In this document: positions 1,413 to 45,707 of the stretch, piece after piece
Layout: the number at the start of each line of letters is the position of its first letter
Position numbering within the stretch: the stretch's first letter is position 1
Assembly: GCA_963775425.1 (NCBI GenBank)
Contig: CAVZJB010000009.1
Coordinates: 272,616 to 336,615 of the forward strand
DNA from: an uncultured delta proteobacterium
GTDB taxonomy: Bacteria > Myxococcota > UBA727 > VGSZ01
DNA: 64,000 nucleotides
Reading direction: 5' to 3'
Translations under genes and position numbers: made by a program
Notes under the pieces: model-generated
What the model was told of the DNA's origin: nothing
The model's database searches: none
Seen by the model: only the letters and a program-made list of their open reading frames with translations

Positions 1413-1422
1413 CGGGCCGCGC

Positions 1423-6701: not shown

Positions 6702-6708
6702 GCAGGAA

Positions 6709-6716: not shown

Positions 6717-6749
6717 GGGAACGACTTGGGTCATGTATCGCACCTGCAT

Positions 6750-12372: not shown

Positions 12373-12635
12373 GCGGCCAGCGTAGCCCGCCTCCGCCGCG
12401 GACGACGAGCGCTTCCGGCACGGGATCGTCTCGAGTCACGACGTCTGTGCGCGCCCACGCGAGCGCGCCGGCGTCCGCACCGCGCGCGCCATGTTCGTGC
12501 CGTGACCGTGCGAGGGCACCTGGCCCCGTTCGCCGCGCTGCTCCTGTGCGGCTGCCCGCTCGACGTGTCCCTGCAGGGGAAGCCGTGCGACGCCGGCCAC
12601 GCCTGCGCCGGCGGCTTCCGCCTGGCGCCGTAGGG

Positions 12636-14304
<1,669 letters not shown>

Positions 14305-24023: not shown

Positions 24024-24056
24024 GGCACGCCGCGCGGTTCACGCAAGAGACGGGCG

Positions 24057-27687: not shown

Positions 27688-28973
27688 GGCCGCTCCCCCT
27701 CGTCGGCGGCCCTCGCCGGCACGGTGGACGGCGGCACCGTGGACGGCGGCACCGTCGACGACGGCGCGACGGCCTCCATCAGCTCGAAGAAGGCGCCGCG
27801 GATGTCGTCCGGGACGGCGCCGCCGTAGGTGCGCTCGTAGAGCCGCTCGAGCACGTGAACGGGCTCGATGTCCTGCAGCGAGGCGGCGGCGGCGACGTCG
27901 GCGAGGGGGCCGCCGTCGCCGGCGAGCGCCCGGTGCACGCGCACGAGCCGCACCGGCTTCCCCTCGAGCGCCGCCTCCACGCGCGCGCGCAGGTCGGGGC
28001 ACGGGGCGTCGAGCTTGACGCGCACCTCGAGGAGCGGCCGCGCGTCGACGGGGGCGTCCGGGAGATCGAGCGCGCGCAGGCGGGCGAGGACGTCGTCGAC
28101 GCCGGCGGCGGCCTCGGGGACGCGCAGCAGGTCGACGGCGCGCGGGACGAAGAGCGGGCGGACGCGGGCCTCGGGGAGGTCGACGACGAGCACCTGGTGG
28201 CGGTAGGCGCGCTCGGTCATCGACAGCGGGATGGGCGAGCCGCTGTAGCGGACGTTGTCGCGGCCGGCGACGTCCTGCGCGAGGTGGAGGTGGCCGAGCG
28301 CGACGTAGTCGACGTCGTCGGGGAAGATGTCGGCGGGGAGCGCGTGGACGTTGCCGAACACGGGGCGCTCGCTGTCCTCCGTGAGGCGCCCGCCCTGCAT
28401 GTGGCAGTGCCCGAGCGCGACGAGCGACTGCCCGGGGTGGCGCCGCGCGCGCGCGTGGTCCAGCACGCGGGCGTAGGCGTCGGCGACGCCGGCGACGACG
28501 GCGTCGCTGACGTCGGCGGGCTGGGGCGCGAGGTCCGCCATGCGCAGGAAGGGCAAGGCGGCGCACCACGCCTCGACGTCGCCGCCGTCACCGGTGAGCG
28601 GAACGACGCAAGACGCCGCGTCCACCTCGCCGGACGCGCGGGGCAGGGCCCCAACGACGTGCACGTCGAGCTCGCGCAGGATGGGGCCGGGCGCATCGAG
28701 GCGCGGCGCGGCGTCGTGGTTTCCGCCGATGACGACGATGTCGAGCCGCGGGAAGCGGCGCCGCGCCTCGGCGAGCCAGCGGTAGTACTGCGACTGCGCG
28801 GACGCGGGGGCGTTGCCGGTGTCGAAGACGTCGCCGCAGACGACGACGGCGTCGGCGCGCTCGTCCTCGATGCGATCGAGCAGCCACGCCATGAAGCGCT
28901 GGTGCTCCACGGCCCGCGAGAAGCCGCCGAGGGTCTGCCCCAGGTGCCAGTCGCCGGTGTGGATCAGCCGCAA
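27684..28973 (-). CDS. sbcD: SbcD (Mre11-like) nuclease subunit
   Basis: MRLIHTGDWHLG, GNHD, GHxH phosphoesterase motifs. C-terminal STVPPSTVPPSTVP repeat. Confidence 0.85.
   Translation of the reverse strand: MRLIHTGDWHLGQTLGGFSRAVEHQRFMAWLLDRIEDERADAVVVCGDVFDTGNAPASAQSQYYRWLAEARRRFPRLDIVVIGGNHDAAPRLDAPGPILRELDVHVVGALPRASGEVDAASCVVPLTGDGGDVEAWCAALPFLRMADLAPQPADVSDAVVAGVADAYARVLDHARARRHPGQSLVALGHCHMQGGRLTEDSERPVFGNVHALPADIFPDDVDYVALGHLHLAQDVAGRDNVRYSGSPIPLSMTERAYRHQVLVVDLPEARVRPLFVPRAVDLLRVPEAAAGVDDVLARLRALDLPDAPVDARPLLEVRVKLDAPCPDLRARVEAALEGKPVRLVRVHRALAGDGGPLADVAAAASLQDIEPVHVLERLYERTYGGAVPDDIRGAFFELMEAVAPSSTVPPSTVPPSTVPARAADEGERP
27711..27755. repeat. 3 x 15-nt tandem repeat (accgtggacggcggc) within the sbcD 3' end
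   Basis: Seen directly; encodes (STVPP)3. Confidence 0.6.
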
Positions 28974-29106: not shown

Positions 29107-30258
29107 TCACCGCTCGTTCCAGTCCTTGGTGCCGTCGTCGGCGACGGCCCAGGTGCCGACCCAGCGCTTGCGCGCCTCGTCGATGACGCTCAGGTACTGC
29201 TCCGACTCTTCCTCCACCTGCCGCAGCACGGCGACGCTGCCGCTTTGGCGATCGCGGACGACGGTGAGGAGGCCCTTGTTGTCGAGCCGCGTGATGCTCG
29301 AGCCGGAGTTGTCGCGCACGGCGTGCAGCAGGGTCTTGGCGCCCGGGATGGAGCGGAGCTCGGCCACCGAGAGCTTCTCGAGGGAGCCGTCCTTGAGGCC
29401 CTTGTCGAGGTCAAAGGCGCCGTCGGCCCTCGAGAAGCGCTTGCCCCACGCGCTGCGGACCGCCTTGGTCTTGGTCGACGGCTGCTTGCCCGCGTCGCCG
29501 TAGTCGTTGACCTCGTCGAGGGTGACGTCGAGGGTGAGGAAGGGCTTTCGGGCGTTGCCCTTGACGAGCCCGATCTTCTCCGTACCCGCGCGCAACAGCG
29601 AGCCCGCGTCCGCCGACGAAAAGCCGCTCATCCCGTTGTCTCGTTGGATCCACGTGTCCGCGGGGAGCTTGCCCTCGCGCGGCGAGACCACGAGCCAGTA
29701 GGGCGGCAGGTCGGGGCGCGCGAGCGGCGGATCGAGGCGCGACGCGGTGATCATCACCTTGTCGGTGAGCGCGAGGACGACGTCCTTGGCGGTGGCGCCG
29801 GCGAGCGCCTCCTTGAAGTCGATGTCGACGGCGACGTGCCCGCGCGACTCCTTCACCGTCACGCCGGACACCGCCGTGCCCGCCTTCGACGGGATCTTGA
29901 GGCCCGTGATGCGCTCGTAGTCCGCGCGAAAGGCCTGCGGCAGGAAGCGGGCGGACTGCGGCGTCAAGACGCCGCCCGTCGCCTTGGCCGCCTGCTCCGC
30001 CGCCTCCGTCGCCAGCGCCGCGTCGGTGTCGTACGCCTTCGACAGCGGGAGCGCGCCGCGCGCGGTGTCCTCGATGGCCTTGAGGTTGTCGAAGATGAGC
30101 GCGACGTCGGGATCGCGCTGCTTCGCCGACGCCTCGAAGTGCAGCTTGCTCGACAGCGATCGCGCGCCGACGCCCTGCGCGAGCGGCCCGACGATGCCTT
30201 CGAAGAGCTGCCGGTGGGCCTGGCCGAACGCGGAAGGGGAGAGAGACTTCAGACCCAT
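29107..30258 (-). CDS. hypothetical cytoplasmic protein (383 aa)
   Basis: Uniform high GC3. Start MGLKSL chosen because ccggaGGcacattccATG gives a good SD. No signal peptide or recognisable domain. Confidence 0.5.
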   Translation of the reverse strand: MGLKSLSPSAFGQAHRQLFEGIVGPLAQGVGARSLSSKLHFEASAKQRDPDVALIFDNLKAIEDTARGALPLSKAYDTDAALATEAAEQAAKATGGVLTPQSARFLPQAFRADYERITGLKIPSKAGTAVSGVTVKESRGHVAVDIDFKEALAGATAKDVVLALTDKVMITASRLDPPLARPDLPPYWLVVSPREGKLPADTWIQRDNGMSGFSSADAGSLLRAGTEKIGLVKGNARKPFLTLDVTLDEVNDYGDAGKQPSTKTKAVRSAWGKRFSRADGAFDLDKGLKDGSLEKLSVAELRSIPGAKTLLHAVRDNSGSSITRLDNKGLLTVVRDRQSGSVAVLRQVEEESEQYLSVIDEARKRWVGTWAVADDGTKDWNER

Positions 30259-30382
30259 GGAATGTGCCTCCGGGACGTACATGTAGGTCTTCGGAGCAAA
30301 TCTTCCGAAGTTGCGCGATCCCGGGGATTTCCCCTGCTGCGTCGGACGCTTGGACGATGTCTTGCCCGCCGGCGCCGCCTGG

Positions 30383-31433: not shown

Positions 31434-32897
31434 TCAATACGAGCACGCGTCACCTTCGGCGACGAGCAGCGTGGAGCCGCCGATGTCGGCGCTCGCGTCG
31501 AAGTGCACGGTGCAGCCGACGATGGCCGAGACGCCCGGCTCGACGGGGACGCAGCGGTCGCCGTCGAGCGTGCACACCAGCGCGTCGTTCGGCGTGCACG
31601 CCGGCACAAAGACCTCGTCGAGCGGCTGCAGGATGCGCGCGGCGACGGCGGCGAGGACGTCGCCGCGGCCGGCGAAGTCGCATATGGAGCCGGACACGCC
31701 GAAGTTGGCGTCGACCACCGACTGCACGGCGCCGTCGACGCCGGAGGGAGAGCAGTCCTCGTTGGGGCCGGCGTTGGCGAGGGCGTGGACGCGGACCGAG
31801 AGCGTGCGCCCGTCGACGACGAGCTGGTCGAGCGCCGTCTGCGCCTGCGACGGCGTGAGGTTCGGGGTCTGGTCGGGGCTGTCACCGATGTACACGATGT
31901 GCAGTTGCGCGTCGGGCCGCAGGAACTCCCCGGTGTCGGTGGGGTACGCGGGCGCCGAGAAGTAGCCCGTCATGGAGCCGAGCGGCGTCTCGGTGCCGGA
32001 GCCGGCGAAGCTGCCGGCGTCCCAGAGCTGGCTCACGGCGCAGTCGAGATCCGTGCGAGCGTCGCTGGAGGTCTCGTCGACGAAGGGGGTGTTGCACAGC
32101 CGCGGGTCGCCGAAGGGGCCGACGGCGGCGTTGTTGAAGTCGTCGGTGTCGGTGACGGCGAAGCGCAGGTCGGCGCTGCGGGCGAAGACCGCGTCGAAGT
32201 GCGCGCCGATGGTGCCGATGATGTTGCCCTTGTCCGACATGGAGCCGGAGGCGTCGAGCACGTACAGCACGTCGTGACGCGCGCTGGGCGGCACGTTGAT
32301 CAGCACCGACGACGACGTGCTCACGCTGAAGTGGACGGGGATGGCGAAGTTGCCGCCGCCGACGTTGTCGTGGACGAGGACGCTGCCGGTGACGCCGGGC
32401 GGCGCGCCGACCTCCCAGGTGACGTTGAGCGTGGCGCCGCCCCCCTGGGCCAGCGCGAGGGTGGCGGGGGACACGCCGAGCACGGCGCGTGACGTCGTCA
32501 ACGTGAGGTCGACGTCGGCGAGCGCGGTGACGGCGACGCCGACCGAGAACGTGTGGCCCGCGCACATCGCGGGCTGCGCGGCGGCGGTGATCTCGGCGAC
32601 CGTGTCGATGAGGTCGACGGGCGGCTCGCCCTCTCCCTCGCCCTCGCCCTCGCCCTCGCCCTCTCCCTCGCCCTCGCCCTCGCCCTCGCCCTCGCCCGGC
32701 TCGCCCTCTCCCTCGCCGGGCTCGCCCTCCCCCTCGGCGCGGTCGCGGCACAGGCCGCCGTGGCAGATGCCGAAGCCTACGCAGTCGCCGTCGTCGGCGC
32801 ACTCGACCTGGCCGCGCAGCAGGCGGCACCCGGCGCCGCCGGCGACCAAGCACGCCAGGAGCAGGAGCGCGACCCCGGGGAGCAGCTCGCGGGTCAC
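31434..32897 (-). CDS. lipoprotein with (GE)n linker and von Willebrand factor A (MIDAS DxSGS) domain
   Basis: VTRELLPGVALLLLACLVAGGAGC lipobox. AEGEGEPGEGEGEPGEGEGEGEGE... linker. VLYVLDASGSMSDKGN MIDAS motif. GTGA overlap with the upstream gene. Confidence 0.7.
   Translation of the reverse strand: MTRELLPGVALLLLACLVAGGAGCRLLRGQVECADDGDCVGFGICHGGLCRDRAEGEGEPGEGEGEPGEGEGEGEGEGEGEGEGEGEGEGEPPVDLIDTVAEITAAAQPAMCAGHTFSVGVAVTALADVDLTLTTSRAVLGVSPATLALAQGGGATLNVTWEVGAPPGVTGSVLVHDNVGGGNFAIPVHFSVSTSSSVLINVPPSARHDVLYVLDASGSMSDKGNIIGTIGAHFDAVFARSADLRFAVTDTDDFNNAAVGPFGDPRLCNTPFVDETSSDARTDLDCAVSQLWDAGSFAGSGTETPLGSMTGYFSAPAYPTDTGEFLRPDAQLHIVYIGDSPDQTPNLTPSQAQTALDQLVVDGRTLSVRVHALANAGPNEDCSPSGVDGAVQSVVDANFGVSGSICDFAGRGDVLAAVAARILQPLDEVFVPACTPNDALVCTLDGDRCVPVEPGVSAIVGCTVHFDASADIGGSTLLVAEGDACSY
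32619..32738. repeat. (GGCGAG)n-type repeat array (GE linker coding, minus strand)
   Basis: ctcgccctcgccctcgccctctccctcgccctcgcc... seen directly. Confidence 0.55.
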
Positions 32898-33718
32898 GAT
32901 CCCCCCAGCAGCGCGCCGGCGCCGGCGAGCGCGAGGCCGACGACGGCGGCGCCGCCCGCGACGGCGGCGGTGAAGACGACGGGCGGGCCGATGTCGAGCG
33001 CCTGGCGCTTGTCGCTCGGCGTGGCGCCGCTCCCCGCGGCGAGGCGGTCGTCGAGGACGAGGGCGAAGACGCCGGCGCCGACGGCGGCGAGGCCGGCCAC
33101 CCCGGCGAGGCCGCCGCCGCCGACGAGGAGCACGCCGGGGAGCACCGGCGCGTCGCCGCCGGCCGGCTTGGCGGGCGCGGCGCTCGAGGCCACCGACGCC
33201 GGCACCAGCGGGTGGAGCACGCGGGCGGCGAGCTCTCCCAGGCGCGGCGTGAGCGCGCCCGCCGAGGGCGCCGTGACGCTCGCGCGCTCCAGCGTCTGGC
33301 TGCCGCCGACGTCGAAGAGCCACACCTGCAAGACGCGCTCGTCGCCGAGCTTGCCGAGCGTGCCGGTGACGACGTAGTGAGCGCCGAACGCACCGGCGAT
33401 CTCGGCGAGGCAGCCGGCGTCGTTGCAGCCGGCGGCGGCCTTGTTGGCCTCGAGCGTGATGAGCGTGCGGATGTCGTTGCCGGTGGCGACCTTCGGGCGC
33501 GCCGCCGCCGGCCACCCCTTCACCGCCGTGCCCACCGCCTCGGCGAACAGCCCGTCGACGACGCGCGCCTCGTCCTCGTCGACGCCGACCGGCTTGAGGT
33601 CGAGCACGAGCAGGTCCGCCGCGCCGGCGCTCTCCGCGCCGGCGCTCTCCGCGACGACGGGCGACCCGGGGCCGGGGGCGCCGGCGGCGAGCAGGGCGGC
33701 GAAAGTGGCGGGCAGCAT
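32894..33718 (-). CDS. secreted hypothetical protein with C-terminal hydrophobic/Gly-Ala-rich anchor
   Basis: Signal peptide MLPATFAALLAAGAPG, ESAGAESAGA repeat, C-terminal GGGGLAGVAGLAAVGAGVFALVL. Translationally coupled to the VWA lipoprotein gene. Confidence 0.5.
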   Translation of the reverse strand: MLPATFAALLAAGAPGPGSPVVAESAGAESAGAADLLVLDLKPVGVDEDEARVVDGLFAEAVGTAVKGWPAAARPKVATGNDIRTLITLEANKAAAGCNDAGCLAEIAGAFGAHYVVTGTLGKLGDERVLQVWLFDVGGSQTLERASVTAPSAGALTPRLGELAARVLHPLVPASVASSAAPAKPAGGDAPVLPGVLLVGGGGLAGVAGLAAVGAGVFALVLDDRLAAGSGATPSDKRQALDIGPPVVFTAAVAGGAAVVGLALAGAGALLGGS

Positions 33719-33802
33719 CGGGGCGACCTTAGCGCGGCACCGTGGGTCTTCCTGCAACCTTGATCACAGCGGCGTGCCCGACGACGACGGCGGCGCGGCG
33801 GA

Positions 33803-34126
33803 TCACGAGCCGCGGTAGGTGGAGTAGCCGAAGGGCGACAGCAGGAGCGGCACGTGGAAGTGCTGGGCTGCGTCCTTCACCACGAACGTGATCTGGGCGT
33901 GGGGATAGAACGTGTCCTGCCCGCTCTTTGCGTAGTGCGCGCCGACATCGAACGTCAGGCGGTGCGTCCCGGCGCCGACCTCGGCGAACGTCTTCACGCG
34001 GCCGTCGTCGTCGGTGACGGCGCTCTGCCTGTCCCCGAGCGTTGCGCCGCTCTCCAGCGTGACGGCGACGCCGGCGGCGGGCTGGCCGCGCGAGATGTCG
34101 AGGACGTGGGTGGTGATGCGGGCCAT
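33803..34126 (-). CDS. hiuH: 5-hydroxyisourate hydrolase (transthyretin-like)
   Basis: MARITTHVLDISRG...C-terminal YRGS signature. 107 aa. Confidence 0.85.
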   Translation of the reverse strand: MARITTHVLDISRGQPAAGVAVTLESGATLGDRQSAVTDDDGRVKTFAEVGAGTHRLTFDVGAHYAKSGQDTFYPHAQITFVVKDAAQHFHVPLLLSPFGYSTYRGS

Positions 34127-34247
34127 GCGTCGTCTCCGGTCCGTGGTGATGGTGCCGACAAGAGTGCCTCGACGGGACGATAGCGCGCCGGCAAGCTCGA
34201 GCGGACGGTCCGGCGTCGCGCGCGTCCCCCTCGTTGGCCTCGAGGCG

Positions 34248-34930
34248 ATGCGAGGCGCGTGCGCCGCACCCTGCGTGCTCAAGCAGCGCACCGCGCTCAT
34301 CGGCGTGGCCGCCTGGTGCATCGCCGCGTGGTGCGGGTGCGACCGCCCCGCGCACGGGGGCGCCTGCAACGAGGACTCGGATTGCGCGGGCGCCTCCTGC
34401 GTCCTCGGCGCGTGCGTGGTCCCGGCCGTGGTGTGCGGAGACGGCAAGCTCGACGCGGGCGAGCAGTGCGACGACGGCGCGCGCGCAGCCGGTGACGGCT
34501 GCGACGCCCGCTGCCTGATCGAGGCGGGCTGGGACTGCGGCGGCGCGCCGAGCGTCTGCCAGCGCTGTGGCGACGGGGTGCAACAGGGCACCGAGGCGTG
34601 CGACGACGGCGGGCTCGCGCCCGGCGACGGCTGCACCGCGGCGTGCTCCGTCGAGAGCGGCTACGCCTGCGCCGGCGCGCCGAGCGCGTGCGCCCCGGTG
34701 TGCGACGACGGCACGGCGACGCCGGCGACGGCTGCGACGAGAGCTGCGCGGTCGAGACGGGCTTTGCCTGCGACGACGGCGAGCCCTCGACGTGCATGGC
34801 CGTCTGTGGCGACGGGCTCGTGCGCGGCGCCGAGGGCTGCGACGACGCCAACGCCGCCGCCGGCTGCGACGCCGGCTGCACCCCGACCGTCGGCTTCGCG
34901 TGCGACGCCTCCGAGCCGTCGGTCTGCCGG
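34248..34930 (+). CDS. secreted Cys-rich repeat protein (Myxococcus-type CGDG..GExCDDG..GDGC repeats); frameshifted, 3' end unresolved
   Basis: Signal/lipobox IAAWCGC. Repeats CGDGKLDAGEQCDDGARAAGDGCDARC and CGDGVQQGTEACDDGGLAPGDGCTAAC. The third repeat breaks frame at about 34722 (G-run ccggcg vs expected ccgggcg) and continues in another frame as GDGCDESCAVETGFACDDGEPSTC.... Confidence 0.55.
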
Positions 34931-35131
34931 ACCTTGCAACGGGCGCGACCGCCTTGCACGGCGTCGACGCGAGCGAGCTTGTGCTCACGCCGACGGGCGC
35001 AACGCGATCCCCCCTCCCCGCGGTGGTCGCCGCCGCCGGTGCGCACGAGAGCCCTCCACACCGCTGCGAAGTCGCCACAGCGACACCGCTCCCAATTCCG
35101 TTTCGACTATTCCGCTATGCGGATCACTTCT

Positions 35132-36652
35132 CTAGGCGAGCCTGGCCAACCGAAGCGCGGTGATCCTCTTCTGCTCCTCGGCCGCGTTCTTGATCTCGGC
35201 GTCGCGGTCGTTCTTCACGCGCTCCTCGAGGATGGCGAGCATCTCCGCCGCCGACTTCCCCGACGCCATCACGATGAAGATGAAGCCGTGCTTGGCGAAA
35301 TACGCGTCGTTTTGCGCGGCGAGGCGCGCCTTGACGTCGTCGACGGCGCCGCCGACGGCGCGCTGCTCGTCGTCGGACCACGCGCGGGACGCTGCCGTCG
35401 CTGCCGCGGCCGCTCCGCCGCCGATGCGCGGGTGCGCCGCGAAAGCCTCGAGCCAGTCGTCGGTGACGAGGGCGTTGAACGCGGCGCGCACCGACTCGTC
35501 CAAGGCGCTCGGCGCGAGGAACGGCCGCGCCGCCAGCATCTTCTTCGCCCACGTGCATGAGCCGCAGCAGGAGAGGAACGCCGCCTCCGCCTCGGCGGGC
35601 GGCATGGCGTTCAGGCGCTTGACGCGCAGGGCCGCGCGCTCGTCGTCGTCGACGCGGGCGAACACGCGGAAGCGCGCGACGCCGCCGTCGGGGTGGACGC
35701 GGAGGCGAACGTGCGACACCGCCGGTTGCGCGCCCGACAAGGGGAACACGTGCCGCGTGTGCGGCCGCAGTTGCGTGCGCGGGAACAGCTCGCGCCACTC
35801 GCCGTCTGCGGAGCTGCCGGCGTCGACCGCGAAGCTCTCGGGGCAGTTGCCCTTGAAGTGCGACGTGTCGACGACGAGCCGCGTGGGCGTCGACCGCGCG
35901 CCGAGCTTCACGACGGCCCAGTCGTAGCCCGCGCGGCGCGCGCGGCGGGTCTCCCACCCGTCGTGCATGCCGCCGCTGTGCCCGGGGAAGAGCAGGTTGT
36001 GGCGGGAGCCGAAGAACATGTCGCTGCAGGCGAGGACGACGCCACCGAGCTCGGCGCCGGACACCTCGAGCTCGCCGTCGAGGCCGCCGTGGAGACGGAA
36101 GTCGGGCAGGGGCTCGCCGTACACACGCAGCCGCGCGACGCCGCCGTCGGGGAAGATGCGCAGGCGCACGTGGGTGAAGCGGTACGGCGACGACACCGCG
36201 AAGTCGTTCTTGGCGTTGCCGAGGAGGGGCGAGCGCGGCAACAGCGGGAACCACTCCGCGTGCTTGGCGATCTCTTGCGCGCTCGGGTAGCCGTCCACGC
36301 TCGTGCCCTCGAGCGCGCAGTGCGACGGGAAGTTGCCGCGGAAGAACGCGGTGTCGACGACGACGCCGCGGATGACGCCCGGTGCCCCGAGCCGCACCAC
36401 GCAGAAGTCCTCGTGCCACTCACCGTCGCGCGCGCCGCTGTTCTCGCGGTGGCTGCGCCGGCTCTCCCAGCCGTCCATCCACTTGCCGCGGTCGGTGTAC
36501 GCGTCCTCGTCCCAGACGGGCTCCTTGGCCTTCACGAGGTTTTCCATGCCGGCGAAGAAGTCGTCGCTGCACACCACGGCGGCGCCGCCGAGCCGCTCGT
36601 TGGCCAGGTCGACGAGGTCCTCGAACGAAGCGATGGCGTGCGTCGTCGTCAT
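35132..36652 (-). CDS. alc: bifunctional allantoicase (two allantoicase repeats) / OHCU decarboxylase (UraD-like C-terminal domain)
   Basis: Duplicated allantoicase repeat (FFAGMENLV.., VDTAFFRGNFP / VDTSHFKGNCP). C-terminal HPRIGG...FIFIVMASGKSAAEMLAILEERVKND matches the OHCU decarboxylase signature. Confidence 0.8.
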   Translation of the reverse strand: MTTTHAIASFEDLVDLANERLGGAAVVCSDDFFAGMENLVKAKEPVWDEDAYTDRGKWMDGWESRRSHRENSGARDGEWHEDFCVVRLGAPGVIRGVVVDTAFFRGNFPSHCALEGTSVDGYPSAQEIAKHAEWFPLLPRSPLLGNAKNDFAVSSPYRFTHVRLRIFPDGGVARLRVYGEPLPDFRLHGGLDGELEVSGAELGGVVLACSDMFFGSRHNLLFPGHSGGMHDGWETRRARRAGYDWAVVKLGARSTPTRLVVDTSHFKGNCPESFAVDAGSSADGEWRELFPRTQLRPHTRHVFPLSGAQPAVSHVRLRVHPDGGVARFRVFARVDDDERAALRVKRLNAMPPAEAEAAFLSCCGSCTWAKKMLAARPFLAPSALDESVRAAFNALVTDDWLEAFAAHPRIGGGAAAAATAASRAWSDDEQRAVGGAVDDVKARLAAQNDAYFAKHGFIFIVMASGKSAAEMLAILEERVKNDRDAEIKNAAEEQKRITALRLARLA

Positions 36653-36709
36653 GGCCGGGTTGTCGGCCGCGCCGGGGGAAATGACAAGGCACTATCGCGT
36701 GCGGACGGG

Positions 36710-38164
36710 TCAACCGCGGCCGAGGATCAGCCGGCCGTCGCGCGCGGTGACGTCGTCGCCGCGGCGAAAGACCTGTTGCCCGCGCAGCCACGTGGAGCGC
36801 ACCACGCCGAACAGCTCGCGGCCGTGGTACGGCGTGAGCTTGTTCTTGTGCGCGAGCTTCTCCTGGTCGACGACGAAGGTCGCGTCGGGGTCGATGACGG
36901 CGAAGTCGGCGTCCTTGCCCTTGGCGATGCTCCCCTTGCGAGAGAGCCCCGCGAGGAGCGCGGGCTCTTCGCTCATCCAGCGCGCCACGTCGACGAGCGT
37001 CCGTCCGCGGGCGCGCGCGCCGGTCCACGTGGCGGGCAGCGTGAGCTGGAGCGAGGAGATGCCGCCCCACGCGGCGTCGAAGTCGCCGCGCTCGACCTGC
37101 TTGAGAGCGACGGTGCACGGCGAGTGGTCGCTGACCACGCTGTCGAGGACGCCGCGGGCGAGCGCGTCCCAGAGGGCGTCCTGGTTTTCGCGCTCGCGGA
37201 TGGGCGGCGTGCACTTGAACCAGGTGGCGCCGTCGTCGATCTCCTCGGCGCAAAACGACAGGTAGTGCGGGCAGGTCTCGACGGTGAGCGGCAGGCCGTC
37301 GTCGCGCGCGTCCTCCAGCAGGGCCAGGGCCTCCGACGACGAGTGATGCACGATGTGCACGGGCCCACCGCGGGCGCGACACATGCGGACCATGAGCTCG
37401 ACGGCGGCGTTCTCCGACGCCTTGGGCCGGCTCTCGAGGTGGAAGCGATAGCTCCGCCGCGACAAGGCGCCGGAGGCGAGGGCGGCCTCGAGCGCGTGCG
37501 CGGCCTCGTCGATGGGCCCCTGCAATTCGGCGTGGGCGAGCAACGGGGCGCGCGCGTCCCGCAGGATCCCGAGGGAGCGATCCAGGTCCGCCTCGGAGAC
37601 GTTCTTGAACTCGGGGACGCCCGAGTCGATGAGGAAGCACTTGAAGCCGAGCACGCCGCGCTCGACCAGCGGGACCAGGTCCTCGTGGTTCCCCGGCACC
37701 ACGCCGCCCCAGAAGCCGACGTCGACGGCGAGCTGGTTCTTGGCGGCGTCGAGCTTGTCCTCGAACGCGGCGACGCTCGTGGTGGGCGGCAGGGAATTGA
37801 GCGGCATGTCGACGAGGGTGGTGACGCCGCCGCGCGAGGCCGCTTGCGTGGCGGTGGCGAACCCCTCCCACGCCGTGCGCCCGGGCTCGTTCACGTGCAC
37901 GTGGCTGTCGACGAGGCCGGGCATCACGAGCGAATCGAGGAAGTCCACGACGTCGACGCCGACGGGCACGCGGCCGCGCTCAACGACGTCTACGATCGCG
38001 CCGCCGTCGTCGACGAGCACCGCCGCCGGCCGCACGGCGCCGCCGGTGACCACGCGCGTCGACGTGAACGCCCGCGCGATCCCCCCGGCGGGCGCGCCGC
38101 CGCGCCACGCCGAGCGACCCTCGTCGTGGCGTGGGGGCTTGTTGTCGCTCGCCCCCGTCGTCAC
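36710..38164 (-). CDS. allB: allantoinase (cyclic amidohydrolase)
   Basis: VDSHVHVNEPGRT, FKCF, HAE, DHSP metal-ligand motifs. The GTG start at 38164 overlaps the puuD stop (GTGA) and the 37-codon extension has coding-like GC3. Alternative GTG at 38053. Confidence 0.8.
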   Translation of the reverse strand: MTTGASDNKPPRHDEGRSAWRGGAPAGGIARAFTSTRVVTGGAVRPAAVLVDDGGAIVDVVERGRVPVGVDVVDFLDSLVMPGLVDSHVHVNEPGRTAWEGFATATQAASRGGVTTLVDMPLNSLPPTTSVAAFEDKLDAAKNQLAVDVGFWGGVVPGNHEDLVPLVERGVLGFKCFLIDSGVPEFKNVSEADLDRSLGILRDARAPLLAHAELQGPIDEAAHALEAALASGALSRRSYRFHLESRPKASENAAVELMVRMCRARGGPVHIVHHSSSEALALLEDARDDGLPLTVETCPHYLSFCAEEIDDGATWFKCTPPIRERENQDALWDALARGVLDSVVSDHSPCTVALKQVERGDFDAAWGGISSLQLTLPATWTGARARGRTLVDVARWMSEEPALLAGLSRKGSIAKGKDADFAVIDPDATFVVDQEKLAHKNKLTPYHGRELFGVVRSTWLRGQQVFRRGDDVTARDGRLILGRG

Positions 38165-39807
38165 GGCGCCCCCGCGGCCGCGGGGCCGAAGGCGAAGTCG
38201 GCGGTGACCTCGCCGCCGGCGGGCACCGTCACGTGCACCGTCTTCTTGCCGCCGGCGTCGCTCCACGCGGTGAGCTCGACGTCGCCGGCGGGGACGCCGT
38301 CGAGGACGAAGGCCCCGTCGTCCTTGGTGACGGCGAACCACGGGTCGTCGACGACGCCGATGTGGTTGATCATCCACGGGTGGATGTCGCAGCGCGTCTC
38401 CACCATCAGCTCGGGCGCACGGAACACCTTGGTGTCCCGCTGCCCCTGCGCGGGCTGGTTGATGCTGAAGGTGTCGTTGTTTTGCGCCACCGAGCGGATG
38501 TTGTGAAAGACCGGGTCGGTGTTCACGAAGGTGACGGGCTGTCCCACGCGCACGCCGCTCACGCGCGGCTGGTAGAGGCACCCCTTCTGCTCGACGGTGA
38601 CCTCGCCCTGCGGCGCGGGGATGGCGTACTTGTCGACGCCGCCGGTGACGGCGACGAACGCCTCCGCGAGCTTTCCGTCATGAACGACCGCGGCGGGGAT
38701 GGACAGCGGCCCGTCGTGGCCGGCCTCACAGCCGCCGTAGAGCGCCACCTCGCGTGGCGCGGGGACGTCCCCCTGCCATGTGACGCTGCCGCGGATGCGG
38801 CCGGTGGCCGTGATGGGCGTGCCCGTCTTGGCTGCGTTCACGACGGGCGCGGCGCGGTCGTGGTCCGAGGCCAGCGTGCCCGCGACGGACGCGACGATGG
38901 TGACGACGACGAGCGTGCCGAGGAAGCCGAGCATGACCGTGGCCGGCGGGTCCACCTTGTTCATCCACCACTTCACGCCGGCGCCGGCGCAGCAGACCAC
39001 GACGAGGATCACCCAGTTCCACCCGATGGTGGTGCCGGCCACGTGGGCGGCGGCGCCGTAGGTGAACGGGAAGTGGTTGGAGATCATGATGAAGATGACC
39101 GGGTAGGTCATGTAGTGGTTGTGCTTGCTGCGGCGCTTGGCCGAGTACGCCTTGGCCGCGTCGGGCTCCTTGCCCGTCTTCACGCTCTCGACGAGGTTTC
39201 GCTGCGCCGGGATGATGCGCATCCAGACGTTGGCCACCATGCACGTGCCCATCACCGCCGCGGTGTGGATGTACGCCGCGCGGCCCGACAGGAGGTGCGT
39301 GAACGCGAAGGCGATGGCCGCGAGGCCGATGACCGAGATGGCCACCGTGAGCGGCGGGTTCTGCGACGCGGCGCCGGCGAGCCGGGAGGACCACAGGAGG
39401 TCGTAGGCGACCCAAGCGACGACGAGCGTGCCCATGCAGATGGCGGTGGCCACCTGATGCGAGACCACCGGGTGAGCGGCGTCGACGAGGAGGACGCCGC
39501 CGCCGAGGTGGTAGAGCACGATGAGGAGGAAGAAGCCGGTCATCCAGGTGAACGCGGCCTCCCACTTGAACCAGTGAAGCGTCGACGGCAGCGCGCTCGG
39601 CGCCACCAGCTTCTTTTCGACCTCGTAGAAGCCGCCGGAGTGCACCATCCACAGGACTCCCTCGAGCCCCTCCCGCTTCTCCTTGGGCTTCTCCATGTGG
39701 CTGTCGAGCCAATGGAAGAAGATGGACGAGCCGATCCACATGATGCCGGCGATGAGGTGCGCCCAACGCAGGACGAGGTTCAAGCCTTCACTGACGAGCG
39801 GATTCAT
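38161..39807 (-). CDS. puuD: PuuD-like membrane urate hydroxylase N-terminal domain fused to a C-terminal cupredoxin (type-1 copper) domain
   Basis: About 300-aa polytopic membrane domain matching the urate-oxidase N-terminal family. C-terminus has a His...Cys-x2-His-x2-Met blue-copper ligand pattern (VFHNIRS...RCDIHPWM) instead of a cytochrome c. Confidence 0.7.
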   Translation of the reverse strand: MNPLVSEGLNLVLRWAHLIAGIMWIGSSIFFHWLDSHMEKPKEKREGLEGVLWMVHSGGFYEVEKKLVAPSALPSTLHWFKWEAAFTWMTGFFLLIVLYHLGGGVLLVDAAHPVVSHQVATAICMGTLVVAWVAYDLLWSSRLAGAASQNPPLTVAISVIGLAAIAFAFTHLLSGRAAYIHTAAVMGTCMVANVWMRIIPAQRNLVESVKTGKEPDAAKAYSAKRRSKHNHYMTYPVIFIMISNHFPFTYGAAAHVAGTTIGWNWVILVVVCCAGAGVKWWMNKVDPPATVMLGFLGTLVVVTIVASVAGTLASDHDRAAPVVNAAKTGTPITATGRIRGSVTWQGDVPAPREVALYGGCEAGHDGPLSIPAAVVHDGKLAEAFVAVTGGVDKYAIPAPQGEVTVEQKGCLYQPRVSGVRVGQPVTFVNTDPVFHNIRSVAQNNDTFSINQPAQGQRDTKVFRAPELMVETRCDIHPWMINHIGVVDDPWFAVTKDDGAFVLDGVPAGDVELTAWSDAGGKKTVHVTVPAGGEVTADFAFGPAAAGAP

Positions 39808-40495
39808 CGACGATCTCTTTCGCGCTGAAGGTGTTGTCTGCCCAGGTATGCACGGGCACGCGGCGCGCGTCGAGGAGCGCGGTGCGCACCGGGTGGGCGA
39901 TGGCGCCGTCGGCGCCCGCGACGCCGTAGACGTTGAAGAGCGACGCGAACGCCTCCACCACGTCGGGCGCGCCCGTGGCGAGGGTGAACCCCGCGTCGCC
40001 GGCGACCGCGAAGCGCGCCGCGTACGCGCGCAGCGCCGCCGGCGTGTCCCGCGCCGGATCGAGCGTGACGACGAGGACGCGGGCGCCGTCGCGGCGTGCC
40101 TCGGCGAGCTTCTTCATGGTGAGCGGACACATGGTCTCGACGGGGCAGTGCGTATAGACAAAGCCCACGGCGACGGGCCCGGCGACGTCACCAAGCTCGA
40201 ACGCTTGCCCGTCCTGGTCGACGAGCGGAAACGACGGCACCGGTTGTCCGGGCCGCCACGCGGCGACGTCGGCGCGCCAGGCGTCGTGGCTGCGACAGGA
40301 CGTGAGCGCGAGCGCGGCGCCGAGGAGCGCGGCGCACACCGTCGGCCACGAGGCACGTTCGTCAGGGCGCACCTGGGGGCCAATAGCGGCGATGACGGCG
40401 GGTGCCAACGGCGGGGGCGCGCGGCGCCGTGAGGTCGGAGGCAACACGAGCGCGCCCACGCTGTGACGGTAGCGCGCCCGAGCGGGCGTGGGCAT
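39788..40495 (-). CDS. SCO1/SenC-family copper chaperone (thioredoxin-like), probable lipoprotein
   Basis: YTHCPVETMCP (CxxxC) motif. LALTSC lipobox. 20-nt overlap with the puuD start. Upstream start uncertain. Confidence 0.6.
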   Translation of the reverse strand: MPTPARARYRHSVGALVLPPTSRRRAPPPLAPAVIAAIGPQVRPDERASWPTVCAALLGAALALTSCRSHDAWRADVAAWRPGQPVPSFPLVDQDGQAFELGDVAGPVAVGFVYTHCPVETMCPLTMKKLAEARRDGARVLVVTLDPARDTPAALRAYAARFAVAGDAGFTLATGAPDVVEAFASLFNVYGVAGADGAIAHPVRTALLDARRVPVHTWADNTFSAKEIVDESARQ

Positions 40496-40560
40496 TGACG
40501 GTCCGTCCGGCGGGAAGGAAACGGGCTGATGATCCTCTGCACGCCTTCCCCGGTCGGCCC

Positions 40561-41922
40561 ATGAGCAACACGTCGCTGCCCCCCACGTTCCTCGCCGAGA
40601 CCACCGCGCGCCTGCGGGCCGCCAACGAGCCCGTCACCCGTCGCTTCGTCGGCGAGAGCGCCTCACGCCAGCCGGTGCACACGGTCTACGGCGGGGCGCA
40701 GCTCTTCAAGAAGGACGCGGCGTGGAAGCTCGGCCGCGGCGCGCTCAAGGCGCTCGACGAGTACGCGCCCTCGGCGGACGTGTTCGCGCGCGCCGCGGGC
40801 ATCCGCGCCGACGTCGCCGGCGTCGTGTACGAGCGCGTGCGCGAGAAGCTCGTGCGCGAGCCCGTCGAGGACATGCGCATCGACTTCGAGGACGGCTACG
40901 GCAACCGCCCCGACGACGAAGAAGACGCCGAGGCGGTGCGCTGCGCGCACGAGGTGGCCGCCGGCATGAAGGATCCGCGCGCGCCGGGCAGCGGGCTGCC
41001 GCCGTTCATCGGCATTCGCATCAAGACCTTCTCGGACGAGCTGTTCGCGCGCGCGGTGCGCACCCTCGACCTTTTCGTGAGCGCGCTCGTCAAAGACACC
41101 GGCGGTAAGCTGCCGGACGGCTTCGTCATCACGCAGCCGAAGATCACCACGGCCGAGCACGTCGCCGTCCTCGCCGACGTCCTCGAAGCGCTGGAGGAGC
41201 GCCTCGGCCTGTCGTCGGGGGCGTTGCAGCTCGAGGTGATGATCGAGGCGACGCAGTCCATCCTGGACATCGACGGCAGGATCGCCCTGCCCAGGATCCT
41301 CGACGCCGCGCGCGGCCGCTGCGTGGCCGCGCACTTCGGGACCTACGACTACACCGCGTCCAACAACATCACCGCCGCGTACCAGTCCATGGAGCACGCG
41401 GTCTGCGACTTCGCCCGCACCTTCATGTTGCAGGCGTACGCGGGCACGGGCGTGTGGCTCAGCGACGGAGCCACCAACGTGATGCCGGTGCCGGTGCACC
41501 GCGCGGCCGACGGCCACGCGCTCACCGCCGCGCAGGTCGCCGAGAACGTGTCGGTGGTGCACGCGGCGTGGGCGCTGCACGTGCGCCACATCCGCCACTC
41601 GCTGGAAAACGGCTACTACCAGGGCTGGGACCTCCACCCCGCGCAGCTCCCCACGCGCTACGGCGCGCTCTACGCGTTCTTCCTCGAGGCGCTCCCCGCG
41701 GCGAGCGAGCGCCTGAAGAACTTCGTGCAGAAGGCCGCGCAGGCCACGCTCGTGGGCGACGTCTTCGACGACGCCGCCACGGGCCAGGGCCTGTTGAACT
41801 TCTTCCTGCGCGGCATCAACTGCGGCGCCCTCAAGGAGGACGAGGCCCTCGCCACGGGCCTCACCCTCGACGAGCTGCGCGGCCGCAGCTTCGTCAAGAT
41901 CTTGAAGAACCGTCGGGGTTGA
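40561..41922 (+). CDS. HpcH/HpaI aldolase - citrate lyase beta (CitE)/malyl-CoA lyase-like family protein
   Basis: IDFEDGYG, FVITQPKITTAEHV, LQLEVMIEATQSILDIDGRIALPRI...HFGTYDYTASNNI parallel the CitE-fold DLEDAV / LPKVES / IRLWAMIET...GTNDL blocks. Confidence 0.55.
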   Translation: MSNTSLPPTFLAETTARLRAANEPVTRRFVGESASRQPVHTVYGGAQLFKKDAAWKLGRGALKALDEYAPSADVFARAAGIRADVAGVVYERVREKLVREPVEDMRIDFEDGYGNRPDDEEDAEAVRCAHEVAAGMKDPRAPGSGLPPFIGIRIKTFSDELFARAVRTLDLFVSALVKDTGGKLPDGFVITQPKITTAEHVAVLADVLEALEERLGLSSGALQLEVMIEATQSILDIDGRIALPRILDAARGRCVAAHFGTYDYTASNNITAAYQSMEHAVCDFARTFMLQAYAGTGVWLSDGATNVMPVPVHRAADGHALTAAQVAENVSVVHAAWALHVRHIRHSLENGYYQGWDLHPAQLPTRYGALYAFFLEALPAASERLKNFVQKAAQATLVGDVFDDAATGQGLLNFFLRGINCGALKEDEALATGLTLDELRGRSFVKILKNRRG

Positions 41923-41932: not shown

Positions 41933-42943
41933 ATGCCCGTCGCCAATCCGGTCCAGTTCGCCGTGGTGCGCGAGGATCCCGTCGTCGAGCTCTCGCTCCT
42001 CGCGGACGTCCGGCGCGGCGCTTCGACCGCGGCGCTGCTCATCGCCTCGGGCGGCTGCACGGCGCTCACGGTCGCGGCGGCGCGCCCCGACGTGGCGCTC
42101 ACGCTGCTCGATGCGAACCCCGCCCAGCTCGCCCTCGTCGAGCGAAAGCGCGCCGCGCTCGCCGCGCACGCGCCGGGGTCGGCCGCGCGGCGGCGCACCT
42201 TCGGCGTCGACGCGGACGACGCGGCGTCCCTGTCGGGGTGCGGCAACTTCGAGTCGCTGTTTCGCGGGCTGCGCGCCGTGCTCGATGACCTGGTGATGCC
42301 GGCGGCCGAGCGGCGCGCGCTCCTCGCGGGCGACGGCGGCGCGGGCGCGCTCACCGGCAACAGGTACTGGCCGGTGGCGTTCGAGATGTTCTTCTCCGAC
42401 GCCATGCTCGAGGCCATGTTCGGGCCCGAGGCCACGCAGCACGCGGACAAGGGCTCGTACCCGGCGTACTTCCGCCGCGTCGTCGAGCGCGCCCTCGCCG
42501 GCGGCGCGGGGGGAGCGCCGGCGCGCGCGAACCCGTATCTTCACCACGTGTTGCTCGGCCACTACCTCGACGGCGCTCTGCCGGCGTTCCTGGAGCGCAT
42601 GACATGCGCGCAGGCGGAGGGCGCGCGCTTCAATCTCGTCGAGGGGAGCGTGACGCGGGGGCCGTCCTTCTCGGCGTTCGACCTCGTGTCGCTGTCGAAC
42701 CTCTTCGACTGGATGAGCGACGACGACGTGGCCGCGACGTGCGCGCGCCTCGCCGCCGAGTCCAAGCCCGGCGCCGTCGTGGTCTTGCGCCAGCTCAACA
42801 ACCGCGCTCCGGTCGAGCGCTTCTTCGGCGACGCGTTCCGCTTCGACGACGCACGCGCCGCGGCGCTCCTCGCCCGCGACCGCAGCATGTTCTACGAGCG
42901 CCTCGTGGTCGGCACGCGGGTCGCCGGCGGGGGTGGCGCATGA
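41933..42943 (+). CDS. DUF3419 (BtaA-like) protein with SAM-binding Rossmann motif
   Basis: IASGGCTALTVAAARPDVALTLLD (GxGxG plus acidic residue) and LSNLFDWM resemble the BtaA N-terminal/DUF3419 family. 4-nt overlap with the next gene. Confidence 0.5.
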   Translation: MPVANPVQFAVVREDPVVELSLLADVRRGASTAALLIASGGCTALTVAAARPDVALTLLDANPAQLALVERKRAALAAHAPGSAARRRTFGVDADDAASLSGCGNFESLFRGLRAVLDDLVMPAAERRALLAGDGGAGALTGNRYWPVAFEMFFSDAMLEAMFGPEATQHADKGSYPAYFRRVVERALAGGAGGAPARANPYLHHVLLGHYLDGALPAFLERMTCAQAEGARFNLVEGSVTRGPSFSAFDLVSLSNLFDWMSDDDVAATCARLAAESKPGAVVVLRQLNNRAPVERFFGDAFRFDDARAAALLARDRSMFYERLVVGTRVAGGGGA

Positions 42944-43689
42944 GCGCGGCGGCGCCCCCGGAGAGCGCGGGTCGCTCGGCTGCCTCGCCGGAGCTCGTGC
43001 GGCTCATCGACGACGTGCTCGCCGACGTCGACTACGCCGAGAACCCCTACTTCACCGCGCTGCGCGACGGGAGCTTTTCGCGCGAGGACTTCCTCGAGAC
43101 GCAGCTCCAATTCCACGCGGCGGTGACGTTCTTCTCGCGGCCCATGGCGGCGCTGGCGGCCAAGATCCCGTCCGCGGAGCTGCGCGTGGAGATCGTGCGC
43201 AACGTGTGGGAGGAGCACGGCGAGGGCGATCCCGCGCGCATGCACGGCGCCACCTTCGTCGAGCTCCTGGCGCGCCTCACCGGCGGCGCCGCCGACGAGG
43301 TGCGGCGGGAGATCGAGCGCCGCCCCCTCTGGCCGGAGGTGCGCGCGTTCAACACCCTCCTCGCCGGCGTCTGCGTGCTCGACGAGTACCTCGTGGGCGT
43401 CGGCTGTATGGGCATCGTCGAGCGGATGTTCGCCGAGATCTCCGGCTGGATCGGAAACGCCATCGTCGCCCGCGGGTTCCTGCCCGCCGACCGGATGATC
43501 CACTACAGCCTTCACGAGTCCCTCGACGTCAAGCACGCGTCCGACTTCTTCGCCGTGCTCGACGCCGCCTGGGGCGCCGCCGACGAGCGCTACCGCATCG
43601 AGCAAGGCCTGCGCATGGGCGCCATCGCGTTCGACCAGCTCTACGCGCGCCTGTACCGCTGCCGCGACCGCCGCTGGGTGCGCCCGTGA
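42940..43689 (+). CDS. haem-oxygenase-like di-iron oxidase/oxygenase (HDO; PqqC/CADD-like 'iron-containing redox enzyme' family)
   Basis: ENPYFTALRDGSFSREDFLETQLQFHAAVTFF...IVRNVWEEHGEG...HYSLHESLDVKHA: the E/H-rich helices typical of this family. Confidence 0.6.
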   Translation: MSAAAPPESAGRSAASPELVRLIDDVLADVDYAENPYFTALRDGSFSREDFLETQLQFHAAVTFFSRPMAALAAKIPSAELRVEIVRNVWEEHGEGDPARMHGATFVELLARLTGGAADEVRREIERRPLWPEVRAFNTLLAGVCVLDEYLVGVGCMGIVERMFAEISGWIGNAIVARGFLPADRMIHYSLHESLDVKHASDFFAVLDAAWGAADERYRIEQGLRMGAIAFDQLYARLYRCRDRRWVRP

Positions 43690-44906: not shown

Positions 44907-45707
44907 ATGCGCTTCTTCAAGATCACCCGCGAGATCCTGCCGCGCTGGCAGGAGAAGCTCGAGGCGCTCGAGCAACTGAGCGTCTATCCCCTCGGCGCCG
45001 ACGCCTTTCGCCTCACGCACGGCGCGGACTACTTCGCGTTCTTCGAGCGCATGGGCGAGGTCCACTACTACGCGATCGAGGAGGGCGGCGCGCTCGCCGC
45101 GGTCGCTTGCGGCGTGTTGCGGCCGGCGTCGGTGCGGGCGCCGCGTCGCTGGTACGCCGCGGACCTGAAGGTGCACCCGGCCTTTCGTGGGAGACACCTG
45201 CCGATCACGCTGCTCCGCCGCGCGTTCCTCCAAAACTGGCTCCGCTGCGGGCGCGGGTACGCGGTGGCGATGGACCCGTCCGACGGGCGCGTGCCTCCGG
45301 GGGTGCGGCTGATGGCGCACTTCAAGTGGATCCCGATGTCATTGATGGCGCTCGCCAAGATCGACGTCTACGCCGCCGACGAGCACGGGATGAAGCGCGC
45401 CGCGCCGCTCATCGCGCGTGGAGGCGTGCGGCCTCGATACGTATCGCTCGCAGGGGTCAAGGACCTCGTGCTCGAGAGCTCCAAGGCGCCGCTCGATCTT
45501 CTTCACGTGTCGTTTGCGCCCACCGGCGACGACCGGGTCTACGAGGCGCCGCAACGCGGGGCCACGCACATGTGGTGCGTGCCACGTGAGCACGCGCTGG
45601 CCGGCGCGCTCGCCGCCGAGGGCTTCACGCCCACGGCGAGCGCGACGCTCTTGCACCACCGGCTCGCGCGTATGGATTGGGCGACGCTCGAGACCTGCGA
45701 GATCTGA
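44907..45707 (+). CDS. GNAT-fold acyl-CoA N-acyltransferase-like protein
   Basis: YAADLKVHPAFRGRHL resembles GNAT motif A. 266 aa. Confidence 0.45.
   Translation: MRFFKITREILPRWQEKLEALEQLSVYPLGADAFRLTHGADYFAFFERMGEVHYYAIEEGGALAAVACGVLRPASVRAPRRWYAADLKVHPAFRGRHLPITLLRRAFLQNWLRCGRGYAVAMDPSDGRVPPGVRLMAHFKWIPMSLMALAKIDVYAADEHGMKRAAPLIARGGVRPRYVSLAGVKDLVLESSKAPLDLLHVSFAPTGDDRVYEAPQRGATHMWCVPREHALAGALAAEGFTPTASATLLHHRLARMDWATLETCEI

Follow-up and report, generated by a model that had tools for sequence, protein, structure and literature searches.

A predicted blue-copper electron exit in the membrane urate oxidase of a Myxococcota purine-catabolic gene cluster

Introduction

How might electrons leave urate when a membrane-bound urate oxidase carries no cytochrome c? 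Among urate oxidases, PuuD is the most poorly understood: since 2015 it has been open which cofactor its membrane domain uses, which acceptor takes its electrons and how it connects to the respiratory chain, and its haem version has resisted overexpression. The PuuD of Agrobacterium fabrum is a cytochrome c membrane urate oxidase, and the family was defined by a C-terminal cytochrome c domain containing a CxxCH motif and an axial methionine (Doniselli et al. 2015, PMC4562309). The question is raised by a stretch of 64,000 nucleotides from an uncultured delta proteobacterium of the Myxococcota (contig CAVZJB010000009.1, positions 272,616 to 336,615), hereafter the window, with a G+C content of about 72%, in which a cluster of purine-catabolic genes contains a puuD whose product ends in a predicted copper domain.

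This cluster is best explained as an operon for aerobic urate catabolism, leading from urate through 5-hydroxyisourate (HIU), 2-oxo-4-hydroxy-4-carboxy-5-ureidoimidazoline (OHCU), allantoin and allantoate to ureidoglycolate and urea, and the reading that accounts best for PuuD, one that we hold to be probable, is that its blue-copper domain would serve as the electron exit for urate oxidation. In the mechanism proposed here, the transmembrane DUF989 (Urate_ox_N) domain would oxidise urate, probably at the cytoplasmic face of the membrane, the side already proposed in 2015 (PMC4562309); two electrons would then cross the membrane domain to the attached periplasmic type-1 copper domain, standing in for the cytochrome c, and would be handed on, most likely to a haem-copper terminal oxidase, so that no H2O2 would be made. 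A co-translated SCO1-like lipoprotein, encoded upstream and characterised by a Cx5C motif, may help, in this sub-clade, to load the copper domain with its metal or to reduce it; such a dedicated role in copper loading or thiol reduction is the least certain step and is advanced only tentatively. That the domain binds copper, in which direction and between which partners electrons move, and that urate is the substrate are all points that we infer from sequences and predicted structures.

A blue-copper exit domain would offer an optical and electron paramagnetic resonance handle (a band at ~600 nm) on the electrons leaving urate. It would also make the carrier domain of PuuD a modular element, either haem c or copper, and it predicts a copper-dependent use of purine nitrogen in soil and predatory bacteria.

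A copper module in place of cytochrome c

The PuuD of the window contains no CxxCH motif, and no cytochrome c Pfam domain is found either in this protein or in its 120 best homologues. The ligand set of a type-1 copper site is intact, and the claim of a preliminary description of this locus, that a cupredoxin occupies the place of the cytochrome c of the characterised Agrobacterium PuuD, holds. That description had added that the cupredoxin would be incidental if a separate cytochrome c partner were encoded next to puuD in related genomes; no credible cytochrome c gene was detected by a CxxCH scan within 3 kb of puuD, either in the window or in 27 related loci. The only candidates given by the scan, two shadow open reading frames (ORFs) overlapping puuD and one gene in locus L081, were rejected; the L081 gene encodes a dihaem protein, lies ~3 kb from puuD and is not conserved in the other loci.

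The four ligands are read in the PuuD translation in the motif H435 ... C473-D-I-H476-P-W-M479; they align to H53, C92, H95 and M98 of amicyanin, and are kept in 118, 118, 117 and 118 of 118 homologues, respectively. In an AlphaFold 2 (AF2) model of PuuD (118 homologues; predicted local distance difference test score, pLDDT, 91.8; predicted template modelling score, pTM, 0.88), eight transmembrane helices are followed by an all-beta region in which H435, C473, H476 and M479 lie on a confident cupredoxin fold, as the preliminary description had anticipated. From the alignments and from root-mean-square deviations we infer a type-1 ligand geometry for PuuD.

The cupredoxin identity is drawn from sequence matches in the PDB, profile comparison and fold searches, and not from Pfam. 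Residues 335-548 match the blue copper protein of Nitrosopumilus (5fc9) with an E-value of 9e-6 and amicyanins at E ~0.1 in a sequence search of the PDB; a profile built from 20 homologues of the module aligns with amicyanin at 94% probability in hhalign (E 1e-7). According to these comparisons, the C-terminal module of ~210 residues consists of a carboxypeptidase-regulatory-like beta-sandwich that encloses a predicted cupredoxin core (about residues 400-486); the type-1 ligands and the fold of the preliminary description stand, and its picture of a bare cupredoxin gives way to a two-part module. Residues C360 and C410 of the module, invariant among PuuD homologues, may form a periplasmic disulfide.

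Two observations on the module weigh against a functional copper exit in this protein. The first is that no Pfam cupredoxin model, Copper-bind and Cupredoxin_1 included, matches the PuuD C-terminus at E <= 0.01, the sole Pfam match there being a weak carboxypeptidase-regulatory-like one over residues 492-539; of the profile matches expected by the preliminary description, those to Urate_ox_N, Allantoicase and OHCU_decarbox were recovered and that to a cupredoxin family was not. The second concerns residues 488, 516 and 517, which are H, H and E in 112 of 118 homologues (HPxF ... WHE), D, S and D in the PuuD of the window, and N, S and D in its close relative P0003. The H488/H516/E517 triad may be a second conserved site lost in the window copy, and this copy could be impaired if the triad is functionally needed.

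Could the module then be a structural, docking or copper-sensing appendage, with the electrons of urate flowing through the membrane domain to the quinone pool or to O2? We consider this unlikely. The failure of the Pfam cupredoxin models speaks for it, as do the non-redox beta-sandwich that makes up half of the module, the fact that the cofactor and acceptor of DUF989 have not been assigned, and the report by Doniselli et al. that a classical respiratory inhibitor had no specific inhibitory effect (PMC4562309). It is opposed by the retention of each of the four type-1 ligands in at least 117 of 118 homologues, a conservation that would be unexpected unless the copper were functional, and by the position of the module, which is exactly that of the cytochrome c domain in the characterised PuuD; elsewhere, as described below, the module also takes the place of cytochrome c in subunit II fusions of the caa3 type and is encoded between genes for bc-type and oxidase components. 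An electron exit through copper remains the reading that we prefer.

This form of PuuD is not confined to the window. Nearly all of the 120 best homologues, taken from a collection of 5.8 billion proteins, cover 96-100% of the query and have lengths of 518-589 amino acids; their automatic names are "uncharacterized membrane protein/plastocyanin" (JGI) and "urate hydroxylase PuuD" (NCBI). A full-text literature search retrieved no paper on a copper version of PuuD, PuuD and cupredoxins being mentioned together only in unrelated passages, and nothing relevant on DUF989 or on the combination of a cupredoxin with a carboxypeptidase regulatory-like domain. The main text and one supplementary file of PMC4562309 make no mention of a copper variant, and that file includes no Myxococcota or Bdellovibrionota. 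As far as we have searched, the PuuD-cupredoxin variant is real, widespread in sequence data and undescribed in the searchable literature.

In two related loci, one or two ORFs of 52 amino acids are located directly after puuD (L083, 9632-9945; L084, 9632-9790) and resemble the last beta-strands of the module. They have a weak CarboxypepD_reg match and score 28-36 bits against a hidden Markov model (HMM) of the module; it looks as if the 3' end of puuD had undergone short tandem duplication.

The membrane domain and its substrate

The N-terminal part of PuuD matches PF06181 with 319 bits (cut-off 26.9) over residues 6-305, corresponding to profile positions 4-290 of 295. The eight long helices of the AF2 model fall between residues 3 and 318, and the copper module comes after the eighth. 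An N-out/C-out topology has been proposed for PuuD (PMC4562309); the K/R-rich loops read in the sequence of the window protein agree with it, and a periplasmic location of the C-terminal module fits this arrangement. Residues invariant in the homologue alignments include R14, H17, H56, E83, R176 and H245. Proteins consisting of a short DUF989 domain retain R14, W15, H17, M190, N193, P200, N230 and H245, and lack the cytoplasmic hairpin carrying H56 as well as H78, E83 and H229; this comparison, made with hmmalign and only partly successful, suggests that the long and short forms of DUF989 may share a common relay core to which the long form would add urate-specific elements. H17 and H245, kept in both forms, are candidate ligands for a possible haem b.

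What weighs against the proposed route at this point is that fold searches found no solved structure resembling the DUF989 domain, so that the electron path through the membrane is a conjecture. The substrate, too, can be questioned, as PuuD could be a DUF989 oxidoreductase acting on another heterocycle and located in the cluster by chance. Short DUF989 proteins and some genes that encode PuuD fused to the copper module (CupMod), such as that of L027, have no purine genes nearby, so that not every PuuD-CupMod member need act on urate, a further point to be held against the proposed reading; moreover, relatives of DUF989 have been linked to pyrroloquinoline quinone clusters in the literature. 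For the protein of the window, another substrate is nevertheless very improbable: its PF06181 match is full-length, its gene is translationally coupled to that of allantoinase, the cluster contains no other urate oxidase, and purine genes adjoin puuD in the window and in sixteen related loci.

A comparison with clusters of another type points the same way. In L091, a Thermoanaerobaculia metagenome-assembled genome (MAG), and L092, a JGI metagenome contig, genes for xanthine dehydrogenase, DUF6986, HIU hydrolase and allantoinase are all present, and the slot of PuuD is held by a classical uricase (PF01014). The exchange of uricase for the PuuD-copper module would be a non-orthologous displacement, and it supports urate oxidation as the function of PuuD in the cluster.

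The module outside PuuD

The most novel lead is the wider family of the module, with the ties of this family to DUF989 and oxidase subunit II. A scan with the most conserved peptide of the module, restricted to one genome per species, identified at least 589 genomes, from which 80 loci were fetched and sorted with an HMM run on their ORFs. Of the 80, 21 encode the module in one protein with a full-length PuuD domain, and L001 and L020 encode the two parts in adjacent ORFs; most of these PuuD-linked loci belong to Myxococcota or Bdellovibrionota, and purine-catabolic genes lie alongside in 16 of them. The family is considerably larger than these loci: among 1.84 billion cluster representatives, HMMER finds 10,376 relatives of the module at E <= 1e-3, of which 4,659 reach E <= 1e-10, most of the 150 best-scoring being proteins of 240-300 amino acids.

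Among the 57 loci in which the module is not fused to PuuD, ten carry a short or mid-length DUF989 gene no more than 330 bp away from it; Pfam confirms these genes, and the orientation of the pair is usually convergent (L017, L022, L030, L042, L044, L050, L053, L068, L071 and L072; see Table 1 for an example). These pairs, which have no purine genes around them, come from Omnitrophota, Planctomycetota, Acidobacteriota and delta-proteobacterial MAGs; they indicate that the partnership between the module and DUF989 is recurrent, and PuuD would be its covalent form.

A second set of contexts connects the module to respiratory oxidases. In four Omnitrophota loci (Table 1) it forms the N-terminal part of a fusion with cytochrome oxidase subunit II (CoxII), recognised by COX2_TM, COX2 and the CuA motif CAEFCGLGHYRM. 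In L015 and L060 a stand-alone module gene is located between genes for cytochrome b and a multihaem cytochrome c on one side and CtaA/CtaB on the other; COX2 comes next after CtaA/CtaB in L060, and a SCO1-like gene is found further downstream in L015. The fusions to CoxII and the genes flanked by bc-type and oxidase components are what would be expected of a periplasmic carrier feeding a haem-copper oxidase. The remaining loci contain stand-alone modules with a signal or lipoprotein sequence; in the window itself, neither a second copy of the module nor a CoxII gene was found.

Taken together, the fusions to CoxII and the pairing with short DUF989 proteins suggest that cupredoxin carriers of this kind form a large family still to be characterised, and they provide a clue to the function of DUF989. 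A broader proposal, possible though we put it below an even chance, is that the module, with its ~10,000 cluster representatives at 50% identity, represents a so far unrecognised and very widespread class of cupredoxin carrier, periplasmic or tethered to the membrane, that would replace cytochrome c in Myxococcota, Bdellovibrionota, Omnitrophota, Acidobacteriota, Planctomycetota and further phyla, joining bc-type complexes and DUF989 oxidoreductases, PuuD included, to haem-copper oxidases; the long and short DUF989 proteins would then be transmembrane relay enzymes having the module as their dedicated partner, with a Cx5C clade of SCO proteins as the maturation factor in some lineages.

The SCO1-like protein

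The preliminary description had PuuD followed by an SCO1 gene with a 20-nt overlap and took this gene as a sign of copper dependence. The overlap is present in the DNA (39788-39807, between the SCO1 stop and the puuD ATG), but SCO1 precedes puuD in transcription and heads the operon. Its ORF opens at ATG 40495; an alternative start at GTG 40372 yields a lipoprotein signal ending in LTSC and is the more likely start, since it fits the relatives of the protein better. In the PDB, the protein matches 4bpy (E 2.5e-9) and 4wbj (E 1e-7). A candidate for the distal histidine ligand of SCO proteins lies within DGAIAHPV in the window protein (DGTLDHT in relatives).

The SCO proteins linked to PuuD constitute one clade, with scores of 100-164 bits against the window protein as compared with at most 42 for other SCOs. 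Every member of this clade has a Cx5C motif, and more distant SCOs have CxxxC. In the four closest loci (L081-L084), whose PuuD proteins are 65-69% identical to that of the window, the gene order is DUF6986 (divergent), SCO, puuD, allantoinase and the fusion gene described below, with an identical 20-nt overlap between SCO and puuD; in L027, where purine genes are absent from the surroundings, 9 nt separate the SCO gene from the puuD that follows it, and in L088 the two are one gene apart. Within the clade (window, P0123-P0132, L027, L081-L084) the cysteines occur in motifs such as CPVETMC, CPDAAAC and CAVAEAC; all members appear to be lipoproteins, and some of their genes adjoin puuD while others come after a Pterin_bind gene.

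These arrangements have to be set against an alternative that we rate at nearly even, in which the SCO1-like gene is generic, active in CuA assembly or as a thiol-disulfide oxidoreductase, and lies upstream of puuD by chance in one sub-clade, the cupredoxin loading itself with copper. A dedicated role is weakened by several points. The cysteines of the window protein, CPVETMC, are not the canonical CxxxC. No SCO gene is near puuD in L085 (PuuD 50% identical) or in the Labilithrix, Polyangiaceae and Bdellovibrionota loci, and about 20 PuuD-cupredoxin loci of Polyangia and Bdellovibrionota are devoid of one within 10 kb. SCOs of the same clade occur away from puuD in unrelated contexts (L087, L089 and L090), canonical CxxxC SCOs are found in oxidase clusters near stand-alone modules, and type-1 copper sites are not known to require SCO proteins. 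Chance is, in turn, harder to reconcile with a translational overlap kept among orthologues only 65-69% identical and with the independent SCO-puuD arrangements of L027 and L088. There is also a precedent in the haem version, since ccmC mutants lose the use of purines and haem export is thus needed (PMC4562309), which makes a maturation role of the SCO-like protein plausible.

A generic or redox role of the SCO1-like protein is about equally likely as a dedicated one. As a sign of copper dependence, the gene gains weak support from the conserved overlap and from L027 and L088, and loses it through the Cx5C motif and the many PuuD-cupredoxin loci where it is missing; the proposal of a copper-based electron exit is better supported by the contexts of the module elsewhere than by SCO1.

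The operon and its neighbouring genes

The genes for the route from urate to ureidoglycolate are all present in the window, as the preliminary description had stated, and the family matches of all five pathway enzymes in Pfam and NCBIfam profile searches surpass the curated cut-offs (Table 1). The allantoinase gene starts at GTG 38164, which overlaps the puuD stop as GTGA; by virtue of this overlap and of that between SCO1 and puuD, the three genes look translationally coupled. The cluster is interrupted between the allantoicase fusion and the HIU hydrolase gene by a plus-strand gene for a DUF4215 repeat protein. This insertion is absent from the relatives L081-L084. A scan of 33.5-41 kb for promoters and terminators gave nothing above shuffled sequences.

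Table 1. Positions of the genes, domains and ligand codons discussed in the text; the last five rows refer to other loci, in their own numbering.
Feature	Coordinates	Strand	Evidence or details
HIU hydrolase, 107 amino acids	33803-34126	-	PF00576 117 bits; TIGR02962 119.7 bits (cut-off 87.5)
Cys-rich DUF4215 repeat lipoprotein, outside the pathway	about 34248-35135	+	PF13948 29.1 bits; signal-like N-terminus
Allantoicase/OHCU-decarboxylase fusion, 506 amino acids	35132-36652	-	PF03561 in two stretches, PF09349 once
OHCU decarboxylase part, residues 341-506	35135-35632	-	PF09349 142 bits (residues 348-503); TIGR03180 145 bits (cut-off 139.4)
Allantoicase part, two repeats, residues 1-335	35648-36652	-	PF03561 307.8 bits; TIGR02961 408 bits (cut-off 278)
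Allantoinase (AllB)	36710-38164	-	TIGR03178 535 bits (cut-off 358)
puuD, putative membrane urate hydroxylase/oxidase with C-terminal copper module, 548 amino acids	38161-39807	-	PF06181 319 bits
Predicted periplasmic copper module (CupMod) of PuuD, residues 335-548	38164-38805	-	
Span of the four predicted type-1 copper ligands	38371-38505	-	H435 38503-38505; C473 38389-38391; H476 38380-38382; M479 38371-38373
DUF989/Urate_ox_N transmembrane domain of PuuD, residues 1-318, eight helices	38854-39807	-	Pfam and AF2 model
SCO1/SenC-like lipoprotein, first operon gene	39788-40495	-	PF02630 62.6 bits (cut-off 22.8)
DUF6986, malate-synthase/CitE-like TIM barrel, divergent from the SCO1-puuD operon	40558-41922	+	PF22484 599 bits
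L053, example of a pair: stand-alone module gene and short DUF989 gene	9794-10624 and 10719-11363	+ and -	
L014, module-CoxII fusion	11158-12744		
L041, module-CoxII fusion	9707-11335		
L048, module-CoxII fusion	944-2455		
L070, module-CoxII fusion	5400-6980		

The fusion of allantoicase to OHCU decarboxylase, which had been described as unusual, is present and is ordinary and already known. The curated model NF010371 (521 positions; PRK13797, with the CDD title "putative bifunctional allantoicase/OHCU decarboxylase") aligns through its positions 11-517 to residues 9-505 of the window protein; the score of 535 bits lies below the equivalog cut-off of 814 despite this end-to-end alignment, which argues for the same fusion architecture in a different lineage. 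The OHCU decarboxylase domain retains AHPRIG, the catalytic His-Pro motif. A single ORF encodes both domains in each of the 15 Myxococcota-type loci; five Bdellovibrionota loci have separate, adjacent and overlapping genes for them in the same order. The fusion is also present, as confirmed by Pfam, in L092, a different lineage, and the corresponding slot of L091 contains a gene for 497 amino acids without a recorded Pfam match. Further fusions between urate-pathway enzymes have been documented (PMC3646786).

The divergent DUF6986 gene is conserved in purine-catabolic clusters of several phyla (the window, L003, L081-L085, L091 and L092), and directly follows the xanthine dehydrogenase genes in L091 and L092. 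Its AF2 model (pLDDT 86.6) resembles CitE-like lyases and malate synthases A and G in Foldseek (E 5e-7). As no ureidoglycolate lyase is found in the cluster, DUF6986 is a candidate enzyme for the step at glyoxylate or ureidoglycolate. The literature search gave no mention of DUF6986, and no paper could be found as the origin of the name "phosphoenolpyruvate kinase" that some members bear at NCBI.

Downstream of DUF6986, on the plus strand (41933-43689 and 44907-45707), are genes for a DUF3419 protein (S-adenosylmethionine-dependent, BtaA-like), an iron-containing redox enzyme of the Haem_oxygenas_2 family and a weak GNAT match, with no evident tie to purine catabolism. On the other side of the cluster, a long minus-strand ORF (31434-33515) without a Pfam match encodes a run of GEGEPGEGEGE repeats, and two neighbours of this ORF (29107-30282 and 32894-33757) match no family. 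The G+C fraction of positions 24001-28000 is 0.79-0.81, compared with ~0.71 elsewhere; the overall G+C of about 72% and the closest relatives of the window's genes point to Myxococcota/Polyangia.

Comparison with known systems

Clusters of the uricase type use a soluble, cofactor-less enzyme (PF01014) where that of the window has PuuD with its predicted copper module. The SCO1/SenC/ScoI proteins, among them Blr1131 of Bradyrhizobium (4wbj) and Sco of Streptomyces (4bpy), share with the window protein a thioredoxin-like signature, a lipoprotein anchor, a candidate downstream histidine and the YTHCP...CP context; they are characterised by CxxxC and serve the CuA subunit, whereas the clade of the window has Cx5C and a gene coupled to that of a putative type-1 copper protein.

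Amicyanin, plastocyanin, pseudoazurin and the Nmar cupredoxin 5fc9 are free and soluble. By comparison, the cupredoxin of PuuD would be embedded in a sandwich and tethered to the membrane; it is only ~20-29% identical in sequence to these proteins and has additional invariant residues, namely C360/C410, Q407, Q423, N429, D431 and W478.

In caa3-type oxidases, a cytochrome c is fused to subunit II, and cytochrome c6 and plastocyanin are interchangeable carriers. The module-CoxII fusion of Omnitrophota would be the copper counterpart of the former, following the same logic of carrier interchange; unlike in caa3, the putative carrier module is N-terminal to CoxII.

The one relative that has been studied is the PuuD of A. 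fabrum. Both proteins have an eight-helix DUF989/Urate_ox_N domain at the N-terminus, with genes of purine catabolism as neighbours, and in both a putative periplasmic one-electron carrier domain is fused after the last helix; the presumed reaction, from urate to 5-hydroxyisourate without H2O2, is also the same. They differ in the carrier itself, a CxxCH cytochrome c of ~80 amino acids in A. fabrum and, in the window, a predicted cupredoxin with its beta-sandwich, of ~210 amino acids.

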